This document shows, piece after piece, positions 4,110 to 41,090 of a stretch of 64,000 nucleotides of DNA. Position 1 is the stretch's first letter; the number at the start of each line of letters is the position of its first letter. The DNA comes from Patescibacteria group bacterium (GTDB lineage: Bacteria > Patescibacteriota > Minisyncoccia > Phycocordibacterales > Phycocordibacteraceae). A program made the position numbers and the translations under genes. The DNA lies in contig JAZKAU010000002.1 of assembly GCA_040388985.1 (NCBI GenBank), forward strand, positions 52,570 through 116,569. The letters are read 5' to 3'. The notes beneath the pieces were generated by a model. That model ran no database searches and was not told where the DNA came from. It saw only the letters and a program-made list of their open reading frames with translations.

Positions 4110-4916
4110 ATGCTAAGCGACCTATTCAAAGAACTGGGGCTTTCCGAAAGTGCTCACCGCATATATCTCTGGCTGCTTGAAAATGGCACGTCCACGGCTC
4201 GCACGCTTGCCGAGAACCTTGGTCTTCCCCGCCCTTCCGTATATGACCATCTGAACGCGCTCATCCAGAAGGGTCTCGTGCTCGAGCGCGAGGAAGGCCA
4301 TACGAAAACGTTCCAGATAGACGACGTGAAGAATCTTCCGCGACTTCTCGAGGAACGCATGGACGCACTTAGCGAAGAGAAAGCTGCGCTCGAGGTCCTC
4401 CTCCCGCAACTGCAGAAGCAGACCGCATCGGTCGAACCGAAGATACGCTTCTTTTCCGGAGCAGAAGGCGTACGCCAGGTGCTGAATGACATCATGTGGT
4501 ACGAGAATATCGAGACGATGAGCATGTGGCCCATTCGTGAGATGGTCGATCTCCTTGGAAAGGAGTATTTCGAAAAATTAAATCGCAAGCGCATCCCGCG
4601 CGGCATCTTCATACGAGCCGTCTGGCCGGAGAACAAGCGTGTTCCCTTCAAGGACTATCCGTTTCTGGGCACCGGAACCGGCCACTTGCGTGATCTTCGC
4701 ATCGGCCCTAAGGGTATGAGCTTTGATATGGGGTACTGGATATACGCCGACAAGGTCGCCTTCCTGTCGTCGCGCAAAGAGACATTCGGCTTCACTATTC
4801 ATAGCAAGGACTTCGCGGTGATGCTGAAGTCGCAATTCGAGGTCGTATGGGCTGCGTCAAAGCCGGTTAAGCCTGAGCCGCAGCATACCGACGCCTTTCT
4901 CGAGACGGTCAGATAG
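4110..4916 (+). CDS. TrmB-family HTH transcriptional regulator (paralog 1 of 9)
   Basis: N-terminal LGLSESAHRIYLWLLENGTSTARTLAENLGLPRPSVYDHLNALIQKGLV is a TrmB-type winged HTH. C-terminal domain is shared with 8 other ORFs in the window (e.g. conserved ...FEVVWAAS tail). Confidence 0.7.
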   Translation: MLSDLFKELGLSESAHRIYLWLLENGTSTARTLAENLGLPRPSVYDHLNALIQKGLVLEREEGHTKTFQIDDVKNLPRLLEERMDALSEEKAALEVLLPQLQKQTASVEPKIRFFSGAEGVRQVLNDIMWYENIETMSMWPIREMVDLLGKEYFEKLNRKRIPRGIFIRAVWPENKRVPFKDYPFLGTGTGHLRDLRIGPKGMSFDMGYWIYADKVAFLSSRKETFGFTIHSKDFAVMLKSQFEVVWAASKPVKPEPQHTDAFLETVR

Positions 4917-4924
4917 ATTTATCT

Positions 4925-4999
4925 TGGGGCGGCTAGAGAGAATCGAACTCTCGATGCGAGTACCACAAACTCGAGTTTTACCACTAAACTATAGCCGCC
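4925..4999 (-). tRNA. tRNA-His (GTG)
   Basis: Hand-folded cloverleaf. G-1 then acceptor GCGGCTA/TAGCCGC, anticodon stem CGAGT/ACTCG, loop TTGTGGT (anticodon GTG), T-arm GAGAG-TTCGATT-CTCTC, discriminator C, encoded CCA. Confidence 0.85.
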
Positions 5000-7895: not shown

Positions 7896-7945
7896 CCGGG
7901 CACAAATGAAAAAGCGCTTGTGAGCGCTTTTTCATTTGTGCCCGG
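7896..7945 (-). terminator. 22-bp perfect inverted repeat / terminator overlapping 3' end of tRNA-Leu(CAG)
   Basis: CCGGGCACAAATGAAAAAGCGC-TTGTGA-GCGCTTTTTCATTTGTGCCCGG. Core GCGC...GCGC hairpin plus U-run downstream of the tRNA on the minus strand. Confidence 0.5.
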
Positions 7946-34647: not shown

Positions 34648-34769
34648 ATGTGAGAGCATCGTACGCTAGAGAGCCCGTTCCTGCAAGCGGCTCGAGGCTC
34701 TGCCTGTGCCGCCTCGTCCCTGCTTATGCCGCCGTATTAAGGAAGACGTGCACCTGCTAGAATGACCCT

Positions 34770-35328: not shown

Positions 35329-36597
35329 ATGTATCGACTCATCAACATCGTCGTCGGTATCCTGAAATCCATACTTCCGGACTGGCTCGTCCGTCCGCTT
35401 CTTCCCTTCTATCACCGGGTCCTGGCCTTCCTCCTCGCCTTTTCCTACGGTTTCCCAGCGCGCGGACTCACGGTCATCGGCGTCACCGGCACCAAGGGGA
35501 AATCATCTGTGTCCGACATGCTTTTCACCGTCCTGCGTCATGCGGGATATGCAGCGGCGGTCGCAGGCACGATACGATTCGCGATCAACGACGAATCGGA
35601 ACCGAACCTCTATAAGATGACGATGCCGGGTCGCGGCTTCATCCACTCCTTCCTGGCGCGCGCGCGGAAGGCGCACTGCACGCATGCGGTCGTAGAGATT
35701 ACGAGCGAGAGCGTTCGCCAATATCGCCATACGTACCTATATCTCAACGCCCTCATCTTCACGAATCTCCAGAAAGAGCATATCGAGTCTCACGGCTCTT
35801 TCGAGAATTATGCAGCGGCTAAGCTTGAGATAGGCAAGGAGCTCGCACGCTCGCCCAAACGTCCGCGCGCGATCATTGCAAACGCAGACAACCCGCATAG
35901 CGGTCCCTTCCTCGCGCTTCCCGTAGAGGATGTTCGTCCCTTCTCATATGGCGAGGCGAGGGACGTGAAGCTCGGTCCGGGCGCAGCGACGTTTACGTAC
36001 GAGAGCGTACCCTTCAGCCTCCACTTGCCGGGCAGCTTCAGCATCATGAATGCGCTGGCTGTAATAAAGGCTGCGCAATTCGTGGGAGTGCCGCTTCCGA
36101 CCATCAGCGATGCGCTCGCGCAGCTCAAGCGCATCCCCGGACGCACTGAGCGCATCGATGAAGGTCAGGACTTCCAGGCGATAGTTGACTACGCCCATAC
36201 GCCCGATTCCCTTTCCGCGCTCTACGAAGCGTATCCGGTCCGGAAGATATGCGTGCTCGGTAACACCGGTGGCGGGCGCGACACGTGGAAGCGGCCGGAG
36301 ATGGGTACGATCGCGGACGAGTCCTGCGACGAGGTCATCCTTACGAACGAAGACCCATATGACGAGGACCCTCGCGCGATTCTGGACGCCATGGCCGCCG
36401 GCATGAAGCGGACTCCGCGCATCATCATGGACAGGCGCGAAGCCATCGCGGCCGCGCTCGCGCTCGCGCGTCCGGGCGACGCCGTACTTATCACCGGCAA
36501 GGGTACCGATCCGTACATAATGGAAGCGAATGGCAAGAAGACGCCCTGGAGCGACGCTCGGGTAGTATCTGAAGAACTGAAAAAGCTGGGGATCTAG
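35329..36597 (+). CDS. Mur ligase family protein (MurE/MurT-like; exact specificity unclear)
   Basis: ATP-binding P-loop IGVTGTKGKSS typical of Mur ligases. N-terminal TM-like segment. Start set to ATG 35329 after the ruvA stop. Confidence 0.55.
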   Translation: MYRLINIVVGILKSILPDWLVRPLLPFYHRVLAFLLAFSYGFPARGLTVIGVTGTKGKSSVSDMLFTVLRHAGYAAAVAGTIRFAINDESEPNLYKMTMPGRGFIHSFLARARKAHCTHAVVEITSESVRQYRHTYLYLNALIFTNLQKEHIESHGSFENYAAAKLEIGKELARSPKRPRAIIANADNPHSGPFLALPVEDVRPFSYGEARDVKLGPGAATFTYESVPFSLHLPGSFSIMNALAVIKAAQFVGVPLPTISDALAQLKRIPGRTERIDEGQDFQAIVDYAHTPDSLSALYEAYPVRKICVLGNTGGGRDTWKRPEMGTIADESCDEVILTNEDPYDEDPRAILDAMAAGMKRTPRIIMDRREAIAAALALARPGDAVLITGKGTDPYIMEANGKKTPWSDARVVSEELKKLGI

Positions 36598-36741
36598 ACC
36601 GTATCTATAAAAGCTTCGGATGCGAGGCGCGGGTAGACGAAGAATGCAGGCGTACTGAACGTACGACGGAGTGATGAGTCGGGACCCGCAACAAAGCAGA
36701 TGAGGTTTTTAGACACGGTCTAGGGCTGGTACTATGGCAAT

Positions 36742-37677
36742 ATGAAAAGCGACTTCGTCCTCTTCTTAGCGATCCTCATCTTCATATTCGTCCTCTGGCT
36801 CTACACGGGCGGGCCTACGCACCCGATATCCTTCGCAGGACCTTATCTCACACCCGTCACGACTAGCGGTGGACAGTCGCAAGCATACGGAAACCCGAGC
36901 GACCTCTCAGGCGGCTCGTTCCTGCATAGCCTGTCGAGCGGGTTCGGTAAAAGCGGAAGCCTCGGCGGAGATACGAGCGGAAGCTCGAATATCTCCTCTG
37001 TCCCTGCAGGCGATCAGTCGCCTTATGCGGGCAAGGTACATATAAACGGGGGCGATCCTTCCGCCACCTCAGTGCGACAGGAGTATCTTGCGCTCCAGTC
37101 AGCGTCGGGTTCCGGGAATATCAATATCACTGGCTGGCAGTTGGTGAGCACGCAGTCGGGAGCGCAGGCTGTGATACGTGCAGGCGAACGTATACCGGAC
37201 GTGAGCAGCGAAAGTTCCATCGTCCTCAATCCGGGAGACGAAGCTATTGTCACGACCGGACAGTCCCCCTATCGCAGCACGTCTTTTAAGGAGAATAAGT
37301 GCACCGGCTATCTTGATTCGAGTTCATACTCTCCGTCACTCTCGACGAGCAACTGCCCGGCTCCCATAGACGAGCTCGGGGACTTCTACTCTGGGAACGC
37401 TAATCATTATGACGACTGTGCCGACTATGTACGGACCCTTTCGAGCTGCCGAGTACCGGGTACCTCGCCCCAAGGCACGCCTTCATTCTGCAGGGACTTC
37501 GTCCGGGATCGCCTCGACTATTCCGGCTGCGTAGACGGACACAAAAACGATGCTGACTTCGTCGGCGACACGTGGCGCATCTACCTCGACGAGAACAAGC
37601 AGCTTTGGCGCAGCGACAACGATACTATCCGGCTGCTTGATCAGAACGGGAAGGTGGTAGACCAGTACTCGTATTAG
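36742..37677 (+). CDS. hypothetical secreted protein, Gly/Ser-rich N-terminal region and Cys-rich C-terminal domain
   Basis: N-terminal TM/signal MKSDFVLFLAILIFIFVLWLYTG. C-terminus has at least 8 Cys residues. Confidence 0.45.
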   Translation: MKSDFVLFLAILIFIFVLWLYTGGPTHPISFAGPYLTPVTTSGGQSQAYGNPSDLSGGSFLHSLSSGFGKSGSLGGDTSGSSNISSVPAGDQSPYAGKVHINGGDPSATSVRQEYLALQSASGSGNINITGWQLVSTQSGAQAVIRAGERIPDVSSESSIVLNPGDEAIVTTGQSPYRSTSFKENKCTGYLDSSSYSPSLSTSNCPAPIDELGDFYSGNANHYDDCADYVRTLSSCRVPGTSPQGTPSFCRDFVRDRLDYSGCVDGHKNDADFVGDTWRIYLDENKQLWRSDNDTIRLLDQNGKVVDQYSY

Positions 37678-38507
37678 ATCTGGTAGGAATCAATGGCACG
37701 AGCAAGTAAGTCCCGCTTCTCGACGTGTTCTTTCCAGATACTATTAGATCGATTTCCGTTTACTCGCACACCGGGGGAGAAGTTGATTTCCTTTTGAAAT
37801 TTCAATAGTTCACTTTTTCCTGTTATAAGGACTTCATTTGGAAGAACGATATGTGCGTTGATATCTAGATCTGCGAGAAGTGACTGAACGATTGATAAAA
37901 TACGTATATTTTTCTGATATCCGCGCACCCTTCTTTTATTACGTGCTGGTCTAAAGTCCATGCAGCCCTCGTCATCGAAAAATGCTCTGAGGAATTCGCG
38001 TTTGCATTCTCTTGGCATTCTCTCTATTTCTTCCAGGAGTTCCTCAGCCTTCTTGAGAAGATAGGTGCCGAGAGCGACATTATTATATCCGATCTTAGTT
38101 ACCCCTGTGATGGGATTTACATATAGTTTTGGATCAAAGTCATATATACCTTTCATGAGAGTCCTTACTCGCTGTATGAGAGCTCCGCTTCGATTATTGT
38201 ATCTGCAGCCGCTTGAACTAAGCTCTCCGTCGAATATGAGATGGGCGACTAGTAGTACTAGCTGGGGACTCCAAGTACTAAATTCCTTGAACATTCGGAC
38301 ACTCTTTCCTTTTCTACTTAACGCAAATTCGCGCATTCTGTCTCCTGCTCTCTGCCGAATCGAATCTTTTCTCTCTGCTGACAGCGGCAAATCGCGTATA
38401 TACGAATATACTGTTGTTTTTGGACCTCCTGTGCGCTCAACTATTTCGGATAATGTATATCCTTCTTTCCTCAGCGCTACGCACACTTCTCTCAACGTAG
38501 TCTCCAT
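37674..38507 (-). CDS. LAGLIDADG-family homing endonuclease (two motifs) with N-terminal HTH
   Basis: Motif 1 LVAHLIFDGELSSS and motif 2 LRAFFDDEGCMD (LAGLIDADG-like xxFxDxEG). N-terminal TLREVCVALRKEGYTLSEIVERTG HTH. Start ATG (rc 38505-38507) lies 2 nt downstream of the tRNA-Lys 3' end. Confidence 0.6.
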   Translation of the reverse strand: METTLREVCVALRKEGYTLSEIVERTGGPKTTVYSYIRDLPLSAERKDSIRQRAGDRMREFALSRKGKSVRMFKEFSTWSPQLVLLVAHLIFDGELSSSGCRYNNRSGALIQRVRTLMKGIYDFDPKLYVNPITGVTKIGYNNVALGTYLLKKAEELLEEIERMPRECKREFLRAFFDDEGCMDFRPARNKRRVRGYQKNIRILSIVQSLLADLDINAHIVLPNEVLITGKSELLKFQKEINFSPGVRVNGNRSNSIWKEHVEKRDLLARAIDSYQI

Positions 38508-38508
38508 G

Positions 38509-38581
38509 TGCGCCCGGATGGGCTCGAACCATCGACCCACTGCTTAAAAGGCAGTTGCTCTACCGACTGAGCTACGGGCGC
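38509..38581 (-). tRNA. tRNA-Lys (TTT)
   Basis: Acceptor GCGCCCG/CGGGCGC, D-arm GCTC-AGTCGGTA-GAGC, anticodon stem ACTGC/GCAGT, loop CTTTTAA (TTT), T-arm GATGG-TTCGAGC-CCATC. Confidence 0.85.
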
Positions 38582-38624
38582 ATGCCTTTAGATACTAGCA
38601 GACGATGGTTCTGATTTCTAGGAT

Positions 38625-38784
38625 TCTAGTGCGTCATCTTATACGCCACCCAGATACCTGCCATGCCGCCGATAGCGCTCAAGAAGATGGAGGAGAATGA
38701 CAATACTCCCGCGCCCCATAGGTTCGGAATGAATCCGCCGATGGTGGAGCCTACGACGAGCCCGAGCCAGATCATTTGCTTCAT
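38625..38784 (-). CDS. hypothetical 52-aa membrane peptide
   Basis: Hand translation gives MKQMIWLGLVVGSTIGGFIPNLWGAGVLSFSSIFLSAIGGMAGIWVAYKMTH. Gly-rich hydrophobic, not in the ORF track (under 60 aa). Confidence 0.35.
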
Positions 38785-38809
38785 AGCCGTAGTGTACACG
38801 AGTAAGAAA

Positions 38810-38845
38810 GGCGAAAGCGCGCCGCCTTTAGGCGGCGCGCTTTCG
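38810..38845 (-). terminator. terminator after DoxX gene
   Basis: GCGAAAGCGCGCCGCC-TTTA-GGCGGCGCGCTTTCGC 16-bp stem. U-rich tail on the minus strand. Confidence 0.55.
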
Positions 38846-38868
38846 CGGGATATTCCGAACGTTCAGGC

Positions 38869-39294
38869 TTATGCGTGCGGCAAGGTGTCCCTCTTCACGG
38901 CTGCGTACTGAGCGCCATAGACCGAGATGTAGAGAAGTCCTGCGATAAGTCCCAAGTGGCTTATGAACTGCCCCATCACCATCGGGTCAGCGAAGTTCCG
39001 GTAGAAGATAAGTGCGAGGGCGAGCGTGAATATCGCAAGCACGAAAGCTGCGTTGCGCACATGCCAGCCGACGATGAGCGATACGCCAAGGACAACCTCG
39101 AGCACGAAGGCGAGCGCCACGGCGATGGTCGCGAGCGGTACGCCAGCTGCCGCCGTCATGCCCGACTCCATGATGAAGCCTTGCGTGCCGGGAATCTTGA
39201 AGGCAGCTCCCATAAGGAAGAGTCCGCCGAAGAGCACACGCGCCACGACTGGCGCCCAGTTCTCATATGCTCGTGAAAAATGTGGGAGATTCAT
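38869..39294 (-). CDS. DoxX family membrane protein
   Basis: MNLPHFSRAYENWAPVVARVLFGGLFLMGAAFKIPGTQGF... is a typical DoxX start (..ARV/RIxLGxxFxxxGxxK). Start set to internal ATG. Confidence 0.65.
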   Translation of the reverse strand: MNLPHFSRAYENWAPVVARVLFGGLFLMGAAFKIPGTQGFIMESGMTAAAGVPLATIAVALAFVLEVVLGVSLIVGWHVRNAAFVLAIFTLALALIFYRNFADPMVMGQFISHLGLIAGLLYISVYGAQYAAVKRDTLPHA

Positions 39295-39506
39295 ATCTCT
39301 GGTTTGAAGGATTATGTAGATAGATTCGAACACTAGAATCCTAGCATGGGGGGTACGGTTAGACCCTCTTTTCACGGTCTCCATATCTTGATAACGCACA
39401 TGGGCAAAGGGCAAATATACAGAATCTTCTTGGTGCGGTCATAGAACCATCCGATCCAGAAGTCGTACCAGAGAAAAGCGAGCTGAACACGATACTTAGT
39501 CATATC

Positions 39507-40055
39507 TTAGTAAGTTGATGTGTTGTGGTGACTTTCAACTGATCTAAGCGCTGGGAAGAAGGAGTCCACGACAAAATGAAAAGCTCCTCCAAAGGACTCT
39601 GGGTGGAGATTTAATTCCTCTTTTAATTCCTGTTCGGTAAAGTAGCGATAACTTTCAGACTCGTGATTCAGGACTGGTTCAACGTCTGAGAATATCTTAT
39701 ACATCACGAATAGATGATTCTCATGTCGTCCTAGTACACTCCGATTAAATATTGCTTTCCCGATTAGTTCGTAGGTAAACTCTCCCTGTAATCCGACTTC
39801 CTCTTCGGCTTCGCGTCTTAGCGCCGTTTCGTCAGATTCTCCAGATTGGACATGGCCGCCGACTGGAGATACGTATTGCCCTGCGTCCTGCCTATCGCTC
39901 GACTGCCGAATCATGAGCCATCGACCCTCCGTATCTACAATCTCGCCTATTACCGTCTTGTGGAGTAATCCTTGCTCATGTGCTTTACGTTTTGAGACAT
40001 TGCTAATTACTGCCCCGTTCTCGTCCACCACGTCTACTAACTCGTCGGGATTCAT
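39507..40055 (-). CDS. NUDIX hydrolase
   Basis: Nudix box GGHVQSGESDETALRREAEEEVGL (GX5EX7REUXEEXGU). Confidence 0.8.
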   Translation of the reverse strand: MNPDELVDVVDENGAVISNVSKRKAHEQGLLHKTVIGEIVDTEGRWLMIRQSSDRQDAGQYVSPVGGHVQSGESDETALRREAEEEVGLQGEFTYELIGKAIFNRSVLGRHENHLFVMYKIFSDVEPVLNHESESYRYFTEQELKEELNLHPESFGGAFHFVVDSFFPALRSVESHHNTSTY

Positions 40056-40099
40056 CGAGAATAGTATACGTTACTAAGCGAGAGACTAGAGGCGTGGGC

Positions 40100-40750: not shown

Positions 40751-41090
40751 GCACGTATTGTATACCGAGCACTCATTTTCGTATAAAAGAATCTCCCGGA
40801 CTATATAAACAGGAAAGGCGGCCGTTATTGCGGTCGCGCCTTTCTTTTCAGCGACCGAAAGATGACTCGGATGTCACCGCCCGAAGATGACCCACGCGAG
40901 CCAGAGCCAAGCCGCAAATCCAATGCCGACCGCGACTATCGTGGGACCTCCTTCAGGCATTTCTCGATCGTTTGAGGATGTGGTGCGGCCTGCTGGGCCG
41001 CCCATGTCACCCGTGTCCATGACATCATACTCCTCGCTGCCTGGCCCCAGTATGCTCCCGACTTCCGTTTATGCAAGAGCTTGGTTGGTA

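Follow-up and report, generated by a model that had tools for sequence, protein, structure and literature searches.

A homing endonuclease gene (HEG) of the LAGLIDADG superfamily begins one nucleotide past the end of a tRNA-Lys(UUU) gene in a 64,000-nucleotide stretch of a Patescibacteria group bacterium genome (contig JAZKAU010000002.1), referred to here in its full length as the window. This tRNA-Lys-abutting open reading frame (ORF) was confirmed as a real feature, and every relative whose surroundings could be assessed lies at the same tRNA gene. The HEG probably encodes a free-standing homing endonuclease specific for the tRNA-Lys gene, co-transcribed with the tRNA and freed as a leaderless mRNA by tRNA 3' processing. 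Related loci are given by their L numbers, and tRNA-Lys loci that lack the HEG are called empty.

The tRNA-Lys/HEG junction and its conservation

On the minus strand the junction reads ...CCGGGCGC-A-C-ATG, where the A (38509) is the discriminator base A73, the C (38508) is the only base between the two genes, and 38507 is the first base of the ORF. The longer read across the junction is ...GGTTCGAGCCCATCCGGGCGC-A-C-ATGGAGACT.... The 25 nt 5' of the ATG are the T-arm and acceptor of the tRNA, and with the ATG 1 nt past A73 the ORF has no separate promoter, spacer or Shine-Dalgarno sequence. An earlier note on this DNA had given the ORF coordinates (37674-38507) and two LAGLIDADG motifs (LIFDGEL and AFFDDEGCMD), all correctly. 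It had also put the ATG on the same strand as the tRNA, which holds, and 2 nt away from it, a trivial error for a start 1 nt after the discriminator; the strand, left unstated there, is minus. The tRNA is intact and intron-less, and its CCA is not encoded. Its apparent lack of an intron, noted before, is borne out by the full-length calls of ARAGORN and Rfam and by an Rfam scan of 36500-39500 (E ≤ 1) that returned the tRNA only, with no intron model scoring. The HEG is free-standing in that its host tRNA is uninterrupted, there is no intron core, and the ORF consists of a helix-turn-helix (HTH) and LAGLIDADG domains only. Its GC content is 0.41-0.46 (about 0.43), compared with 0.55-0.62 (about 0.57) in the flanks. 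The closest relative, L201, has an identical tRNA, the same junction and the same 4-nt overlap between the HEG stop and the stop of the convergent gene.

Residues 167-242 of the predicted protein match PF14528 (LAGLIDADG_3) with 33.1 bits (cut-off 22.5, E = 6.7e-8); the first LAGLIDADG domain was not detected by Pfam. An NCBIfam scan of the protein gave no meaningful match, and a sequence-profile search of the Protein Data Bank returned marginal matches only (I-DmoI at E = 0.3), so a fold search was required. The AlphaFold model (predicted local distance difference test score of 92.6) contains two LAGLIDADG domains of alpha-beta-beta-alpha-beta-beta-alpha topology whose motif helices pack against each other at the domain interface, one opening with a helix at residues 81-93 and a strand at 94-105 and the other with a helix at 166-180 and a strand at 181-197. 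The top Foldseek matches were I-DmoI, the intein endonucleases TliVMA and PI-PfuI, and I-Tsp061I, and WhiA was also matched, with a probability of 1.0 for I-DmoI, the intein endonucleases and WhiA, and a template modeling (TM) score of 0.67-0.70 on the target for I-DmoI. The motif-2 region reads FLRAFFDDEGCMD (residues 172-184). D93-G94 and D178-D179-E180-G181 are invariant in 28 diverse homologues, and D93 and E180 occupy catalytic acidic positions. The first ~65 residues are modeled as a three-helix HTH and a long helix (residues 44-65), and the HTH region is conserved from residue 5 onward, with C9, L12, R13, I22 and T26 invariant in the 28-sequence alignment. Fold and conserved residues together mark the protein securely as a member of the LAGLIDADG superfamily, nearest to the double-motif monomers typified by I-DmoI and carrying an additional N-terminal HTH. 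The double-motif ORF with an N-terminal HTH described in the earlier note thus finds its counterpart in the PF14528 match and the predicted fold. WhiA was rejected as the identity of the protein: the Pfam scan gave no match to the WhiA families (PF10298, PF14527 and PF02650), the HTH is N-terminal, and the catalytic residues are kept.

The public gene call (P0001) starts at an internal Met and gives a protein of 206 aa, 74% of the ORF, from which the conserved HTH is missing. This truncation presumably arises because the true start abuts the tRNA without a ribosome-binding site. The consequence for annotation is that gene callers truncate the HEG and drop its N-terminal HTH. At the other end of the protein, a C-terminal extension of ~10 aa (...GSNGVHR...) is conserved in L012, L021, L024, L034, L052, L056/L057 and P0115.

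A protein search returned 604 homologous clusters. Most members are ~276 aa long and share 55-60% identity; the hosts are Kaiserbacteria, Paceibacterota, Minisyncoccia and further Patescibacteria, with a single genome from Omnitrophota (L079). A genome scan that took one genome per species yielded 80 family loci. ARAGORN found a same-strand tRNA-Lys(ttt) directly upstream in 73 of the 80; L077, L080 and L079 were tied to tRNA-Lys by hand reading, and the other 4 end at contig edges. Loci L203-L206, which came from a second protein search seeded with L077, are also at tRNA-Lys, with the tRNA 7 and 16 nt upstream in L203 and L204. L201 and the metagenome loci L109, L170, L173, L127 and L200 are likewise at tRNA-Lys(UUU). 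All assessable loci (>85/85) are therefore linked to tRNA-Lys(UUU), although their flanking contexts are unrelated and they span two phyla; none lies elsewhere. Among the 69 genome loci with a complete ORF, the gap to the ARAGORN tRNA end is zero in 48 and at most 6 nt in 62, and the junction reads AC-ATG in 47. The exceptions are the most divergent members, which have short AU-rich spacers. The tRNA-Lys sequences vary widely among the loci, with compensatory stem changes, and the junction is nevertheless kept.

The adjacency of tRNA and ORF is not due to chance. That the HEG is an ordinary gene placed after a tRNA by mere compactness of the genome has next to no probability. Tight packing does have reasons of its own, and unrelated ORFs follow tRNA-Lys closely in L140 and L104, but this account is already refuted by the linkage statistics, which join a single tRNA species to the family across unrelated contexts and two phyla, with tRNA remnants beside the HEG. 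The free-standing LAGLIDADG gene attached to a tRNA-Lys unit, reported earlier for the window alone, is found in that context in every assessable relative, and no member sits in an unrelated context far from tRNAs.

Other ORFs occupy the same position at two loci. In L140 (4891 onward) a Cys-rich ORF of >340 aa without a Pfam match starts at the same GCGCAC-ATG junction, and in L104 (929-1320) a Zincin_1 metallopeptidase gene begins 8 nt past the tRNA-Lys. Expression of downstream ORFs driven by the tRNA may be more general at the tRNA-Lys locus.

Insertion scars and intron-bearing relatives

Leftover fragments of tRNA-Lys lie next to the HEG at a number of loci. In L006, L029, L033, L050, L068, L069 and L077 a tRNA 3' remnant begins 0-8 nt from the HEG stop and covers tRNA positions ~46-74. 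The L006 remnant, GTTCGAGTCCTGGTGGGCGGAC, is identical at 21/22 positions to the tRNA-Lys 3' end of L014. A terminator comes next, and its stem pairs with the remnant's acceptor strand, as in empty loci. The L068 remnant is 29 nt long, and those of L029, L033, L050, L069 and L077 are shorter or more decayed. Remnant and functional tRNA at the same locus (e.g. L006) differ in T-stem and acceptor and therefore have separate histories. Downstream remnants were seen where the next gene does not abut the HEG stop. The 4-nt stop overlap in the window leaves space for neither a terminator nor a tRNA remnant 3' of the HEG; the tRNA 3' half that the earlier note had envisaged downstream of the ORF is thus missing from the window but present in the relatives just named.

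A remnant of the same kind is found on the other side of the unit in the window's lineage, where an inverted copy of tRNA positions 48-74 lies 20-100 nt 5' of the tRNA, over the -35 region of the tRNA promoter. It is perfect over 26 nt in L038 and is also carried by L019, L025, L004, L030, L043 and the HEG-containing metagenome loci L109, L170 and L173, and it is absent from empty loci of the same gene order. The assignment of the corresponding vestige in the window rests on positional homology with the clear remnants of the relatives, and its 12-nt match alone is not significant. The synteny PolA-HolA-[tRNA-HEG]-LTD-Mur-RuvA (LTD, Lamin-tail domain) is conserved, with the tRNA-HEG unit in two orientations, and the empty close relative L104 has the un-inverted order LTD→ tRNA→ ... 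←HolA. These arrangements point to an insertion with duplication of the tRNA 3' part that would have been followed by inversion of the promoter-tRNA-HEG segment, the old fragment staying where it was. Two further matches of the remnant scan, L142 (+780) and L071, were discarded as false positives that correspond to neighboring tRNAs.

Some loci also have a conserved, hairpin-rich leader of ~80-90 nt between promoter and tRNA-Lys (L201 at 4846-4926, L001, L007, L025 and HEG-less L104 at 777-856). It opens with a copy of the first 7-9 nt of the tRNA (GCGCCCGTA or GCGTCCG). The window lacks this leader, its promoter lying right next to the tRNA. Rfam gave no match at gathering score for the L201 leader.

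In deep-branching relatives the tRNA itself is interrupted. The anticodon loop of tRNA-Lys(UUU) in L077 (3696-3962), L080 (1413-1697) and L205 (~1130-1400) is split as CTTT-insert-TAA by a conserved insert of ~230 nt, which was labeled group-I-like from P3/P7-type motifs alone. A tmRNA end was considered upstream of the HEG in L077 and L080 and rejected, the RNA being tRNA-Lys with the insert. The Rfam group I model (RF00028) left the L077 insert unscored even at E ≤ 1, and Rfam likewise gives no score for those of L080 and L205; the insert may be an unmodeled intron subtype, in a tRNA species absent from a recent survey of Patescibacteria tRNA introns. ARAGORN misses the tRNA-Lys genes of L077, L080 and L205, and intron-containing tRNA-Lys genes are overlooked by tRNA finders. 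In the Omnitrophota locus L079 the tRNA-Lys(UUU) is interrupted by a group I intron (CT-intron-TTTAA, Rfam 92.5 bits), and L206 has the same layout with an intron at 101.7 bits. In both (L079 1810-3120, L206 2390-3600) the HEG lies between direct repeats of 30-40 nt that correspond to the 5' half of tRNA-Lys(UUU), and the downstream repeat runs into the group I intron and then the 3' exon. In L079 the tRNA 3' end occurs once more ~170 nt beyond.

Three architectures are therefore found at this tRNA: tRNA, HEG and, at some loci, a 3' remnant (A); intron-containing tRNA, HEG and 3' remnant (B); and 5'-half remnant, HEG and intron-containing tRNA (C). Architecture B members have, as in L077, a short leader with AAGGA before the ORF, so the proposed leaderless release from the tRNA is not universal in the family.

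The intron-bearing loci bear on the suggestion, made in the earlier note, that the HEG may be the remnant of an intron-encoded enzyme. In such a history the ORF would have been stranded by loss or rearrangement of a tRNA-Lys group I intron and would now be inert. Introns or group-I-like inserts in the anticodon loop of the very same tRNA are what speaks for this history, which is nonetheless improbable. The ORF is outside the intron at every such locus, either 3' of the 3' exon or 5' of the 5' exon; the tRNA of the window is intact and no intron model scores around it; and strong purifying selection together with the invariant catalytic residues shows that the enzyme is not inert. For the window the suggestion is unsupported, and its echo is confined to the distant relatives.

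Expression, target and mobility

A promoter-like site recognized by eye ends 11 nt before the tRNA and would start transcription ~4 nt before tRNA position 1. It aligns with a block (...GAACC...TGGTAnTAT...AAAGG) that is conserved upstream of tRNA-Lys in relatives. A generic promoter scan did not list it (4/6 + 4/6 matches), and a terminator scan found none between tRNA and ORF. In the window, a -10-like box with the pattern TAnn[AT]T, in many cases preceded by TG, ends 5-8 nt before the start codon of 12/54 long ORFs and 0/54 controls. In the stretches 34745-34769, 36717-36741, 40056-40080 and 40751-40775 it is placed 6-7 nt before the starts of RuvA, the LTD gene, Nudix and HolA, respectively. 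Shine-Dalgarno motifs are not enriched (29/61 vs 26/62). On this indirect evidence from sequence, leaderless mRNAs seem to be the default for the first genes of operons in this genome. Because the tRNA has no encoded CCA, its 3' end needs an endonucleolytic cut and CCA addition.

The tRNA 3' end can also overlap a terminator, with the acceptor 3' strand serving as the stem's 5' half, as in GGGCACAAATGAAAAAGCGC...GCGCTTTTTCATTTGTGCCC. This overlap was seen in the window at 7898-7937, after tRNA-Leu (cag), and in the empty loci L085, L137, L139, L180 and L164.

In the proposed mechanism, tRNA and ORF would form one RNA transcribed from the tRNA promoter. An RNase Z-type cut after A73 would leave an mRNA with the 5' end C-AUG, effectively leaderless, which could be translated like the other leaderless messages of the organism. 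The parasite would need its ORF only, and its expression would be coupled to tRNA maturation. The HEG would have entered the tRNA-Lys gene together with a replacement 3' part, leaving the displaced T-arm/acceptor fragment behind its stop, a step that the relatives largely show. In the window's lineage the promoter-tRNA-HEG segment would then have inverted, so that the old fragment now lies upstream in inverted form and may contribute the -35 region. The enzyme would cut HEG-less tRNA-Lys alleles, and repair would copy the gene in. That tRNA and ORF share a transcript, that tRNA processing frees the mRNA, where the enzyme cuts and that homing is active are what we infer from the loci.

The cleavage site most likely spans the acceptor 3' strand or tRNA 3' end and the native trailer, because only that stretch differs between occupied and empty alleles; the two share the tRNA and A73-C-A and differ only in the trailer past position 75. 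Were the site confined to the tRNA, the enzyme would be self-destructive in architecture A, and a trailer-spanning site is therefore favored. In architectures B and C the intron could give immunity at a site in the anticodon loop, by analogy with collaborative homing.

The HEG is not present at every tRNA-Lys gene. A metagenome scan by the tRNA-Lys 3' pattern gave 120 loci, of which five contain the HEG; at least 20 others share its PolA/HolA/Mur/RuvA/LTD neighbors yet are empty. In these empty loci CA... and a terminator hairpin come after the tRNA. L104 is empty as well, and its HolA (74-78% identity) and LTD (62-66%) fragments are closer to those of HEG-containing genomes than the window's are. 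The insertion polymorphism that the earlier note had raised for this site does exist, as HEG-less alleles at the syntenic position. In the window's lineage the HEG is nearly fixed and its synteny conserved. Pseudogenes occur in L058 (4001-4825, an in-frame stop after PIT) and L072 (3995-4815, a frameshift near codon 120); both retain AC-ATG, and degenerate copies amount to 2/~76. The same tRNA is occupied in Patescibacteria and Omnitrophota in the three architectures, and within Paceibacteria the identities track the host. HEG GC content is below that of the flanks at 70/70 loci, with a mean difference of 0.098.

A number of points weigh against an active, tRNA-specific homing endonuclease. 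HEG identities correlate with those of four host proteins (r = 0.57-0.74; host versus host, 0.78-0.90). Pairwise identities, nearest-neighbor lists and sliding windows gave no clear recent horizontal transfer, only a faster-evolving HEG, and in no pair does the similarity of the HEGs greatly exceed that of the host proteins. HEG GC content tracks that of the host (r = 0.86). L015 and L026 diverge evenly along the locus, and the HEG is the more diverged part (0.70 vs 0.83 nucleotide identity). The dN/dS ratio is 0.06-0.07 for pairs with dS > 1, and purifying selection over such distances exceeds the classical expectation of invasion and decay. A search of viral contigs found no relatives and so gave no hint of a phage vector. 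Since the occupied allele keeps an intact tRNA-Lys, self-immunity could be accounted for only by a site that extends into the trailer, and in empty alleles trailer conservation stops after 2-3 nt (CA, then A-rich). The cleavage site, the RNA ends, the role of RNase Z and translation are all deduced from sequence.

Several of these same points suit a domesticated LAGLIDADG/HTH protein that serves the host as a regulator of the tRNA-Lys unit, a nuclease or a maintenance factor, is inherited vertically, and stays next to the tRNA for co-expression. The low dN/dS, the correlation with host divergence, the absence of pairs with an outlying HEG, the GC tracking, and the near fixation and conserved synteny in the window's lineage would all follow. 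HEG divergence also falls inside the range of host proteins (L201 and the window are 70% identical in the HEG, 86% in PolA, 62% in Mur and 46% in the LTD gene), and the extra HTH recalls WhiA, a domesticated LAGLIDADG transcription factor among the fold matches. We consider domestication unlikely all the same. Both catalytic acidic residues are invariant, unlike those of WhiA; the gene is missing from most syntenic tRNA-Lys loci and from L104; pseudogenes are tolerated; GC content is under that of the host at all 70 loci; and scars plus three architectures at one tRNA across phyla are a signature of target-specific mobility and not what an ancestral host gene would leave. In our reading the HEG is an old target-specific invader that is now mostly vertically inherited in the window's lineage and whose function is still selected.

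The coordinates of the unit and its surroundings are collected below. Side by side with the tRNA-HEG unit, the window has a second patch of low GC content (0.41-0.48) at 39350-39950, over a Nudix gene (39507-40055). Nudix and DoxX separate HolA from tRNA-Lys in the window (38626-39414 and the Nudix patch) and are not found there in most relatives; L201 has only a small membrane gene between HolA and tRNA-Lys. The Nudix/DoxX patch suggests further recent insertions beside tRNA-Lys.

Table 1. Features of the tRNA-Lys/HEG unit and adjoining genes, in window positions
Feature	Position	Strand	Details
Convergent LTD gene	36742-37677	plus	LTD domain found
Overlapping stops TTAG	37674-37677		HEG TAA (minus) and TAG of the convergent gene (plus); two bases common
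HEG ORF	37674-38507	minus	277 aa; ATG 38507-38505, stop TAA 37676-37674
LAGLIDADG motif 2, FLRAFFDDEGC (aa 172-182)	37962-37994	minus	Inside the PF14528 match
LAGLIDADG motif 1, LLVAHLIFDGE (aa 85-95)	38223-38255	minus	Helix ends at aa 93, then beta strands; LIFDGEL is aa 90-96
N-terminal HTH domain (aa 5-37)	38397-38495	minus	Weak Pfam HTH matches at aa 9-40 (several families); model helices at 5-14, 19-26 and 30-37
Single C, whole tRNA-ORF intergenic space	38508	minus	Between discriminator A73 (38509) and ATG
tRNA-Lys(UUU)	38508-38581 (ARAGORN); 38509-38581 (Rfam RF00005)	minus	74.7 bits, full length
Promoter-like site of the tRNA-Lys/HEG unit	38592-38620	minus	TAGAAA (38620-38615), 17-nt spacer, TGc-TAGTAT (-10 at 38597-38592); by eye
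Putative inverted T-arm vestige, cgatggttctga	38603-38614	plus	10/11 nt identical to CGATGGTTCGA of the tRNA; overlaps the promoter spacer
Small TM57 gene	38626-38799		Between terminator and promoter-like site
Strong terminator	38846-38811		Closes the preceding unit

Comparison with known systems

If the proposed reading is true, the locus would be a natural bacterial case of tRNA punctuation making a leaderless mRNA and would represent a genetic parasite of minimal design that consists of its ORF alone. The family would also provide a new set of compact meganucleases with a guessable target, the tRNA-Lys 3' end plus trailer. A broader claim is possible and put forward tentatively: a phylum-wide, undescribed HEG family for tRNA-Lys(UUU) may achieve leaderless expression purely by hijacking tRNA transcription and 3' processing, and may rebuild the tRNA on insertion, leaving 3' or 5' fragments that can be co-opted later (here as part of a promoter after inversion). 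In deeper branches its enzymes might mobilize, in trans, the ORF-less group I introns of that tRNA.

To our knowledge, free-standing LAGLIDADG genes in bacterial chromosomes are rarely discussed, and we know of none with a fixed tRNA partner. The searchable literature likewise contained no description of a tRNA-Lys-linked LAGLIDADG family or of any with such a partner. In mitochondrial tRNA punctuation, cutting out the upstream tRNA creates the 5' end of an mRNA, and the AUG sits at this end or next to it. The window resembles this system, and leaderless mRNAs in general, in having a start codon at the tRNA end, a likeness drawn here from sequence alone. We know of no case in which tRNA punctuation serves as the expression strategy of a bacterial homing endonuclease.

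The T4 enzyme SegB is a free-standing phage endonuclease of the GIY-YIG type that is encoded in a tRNA gene cluster and promotes inheritance of its own neighborhood by cutting the homologous region in genomes that lack its gene. Like the phage Seg and Mob enzymes the window HEG is free-standing, and SegB too lies among tRNAs; here, however, the enzyme is of the LAGLIDADG type, resides in a cellular chromosome at one fixed tRNA, and has its start codon joined to the end of that tRNA. In fungal mitochondria, mobile endonuclease ORFs (e.g. in Allomyces atp6) integrate at gene 3' ends and supply a substitute for the 3' part that they displace. In both systems the host gene is kept working and the displaced 3' part decays downstream, but the Allomyces case involves a protein gene and an in-frame ORF, whereas here the host is a tRNA and the join is at an RNA-processing site. 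In collaborative (trans) homing, a free-standing endonuclease gene lies beside an ORF-less group I intron, as with F-CphI and cyanophage psbA or mobE and nrdA. This layout is matched by L077, L080, L205, L079 and L206, whereas the window and most members are intron-less.

WhiA is a bacterial transcription factor with a degenerate LAGLIDADG domain and a C-terminal HTH, and its catalytic residues are lost. Both proteins combine LAGLIDADG with an HTH, but the window protein has its HTH at the N terminus and invariant catalytic residues. I-DmoI, I-Tsp061I, PI-PfuI and TliVMA share with it the fold, one catalytic acidic residue per motif and the same PF14528 family. Enzymes of the I-DmoI type are encoded in archaeal rRNA introns or in inteins and target rRNA or protein genes, whereas the window enzyme is free-standing and tied to a tRNA, has an extra HTH of ~65 aa and is ~20% identical to them.

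Work on group I introns in Patescibacterial tRNAs concluded that their mobility is limited and mentions neither tRNA-Lys nor a free-standing endonuclease (PMC13011429 and preprint). If the proposed reading is true, the HEG would be a candidate mobility factor for ORF-less tRNA introns of Patescibacteria; the broader claim above, if it holds, would revise that conclusion. LAGLIDADG genes are also found as intervening sequences within rRNA genes of the candidate phyla radiation, in a report in which tRNA is not mentioned (PMC11270868). Those insertions share with the window the phylum, the superfamily and the choice of conserved structural-RNA genes; here, in contrast, the RNA gene is uninterrupted and the ORF abuts its 3' end.

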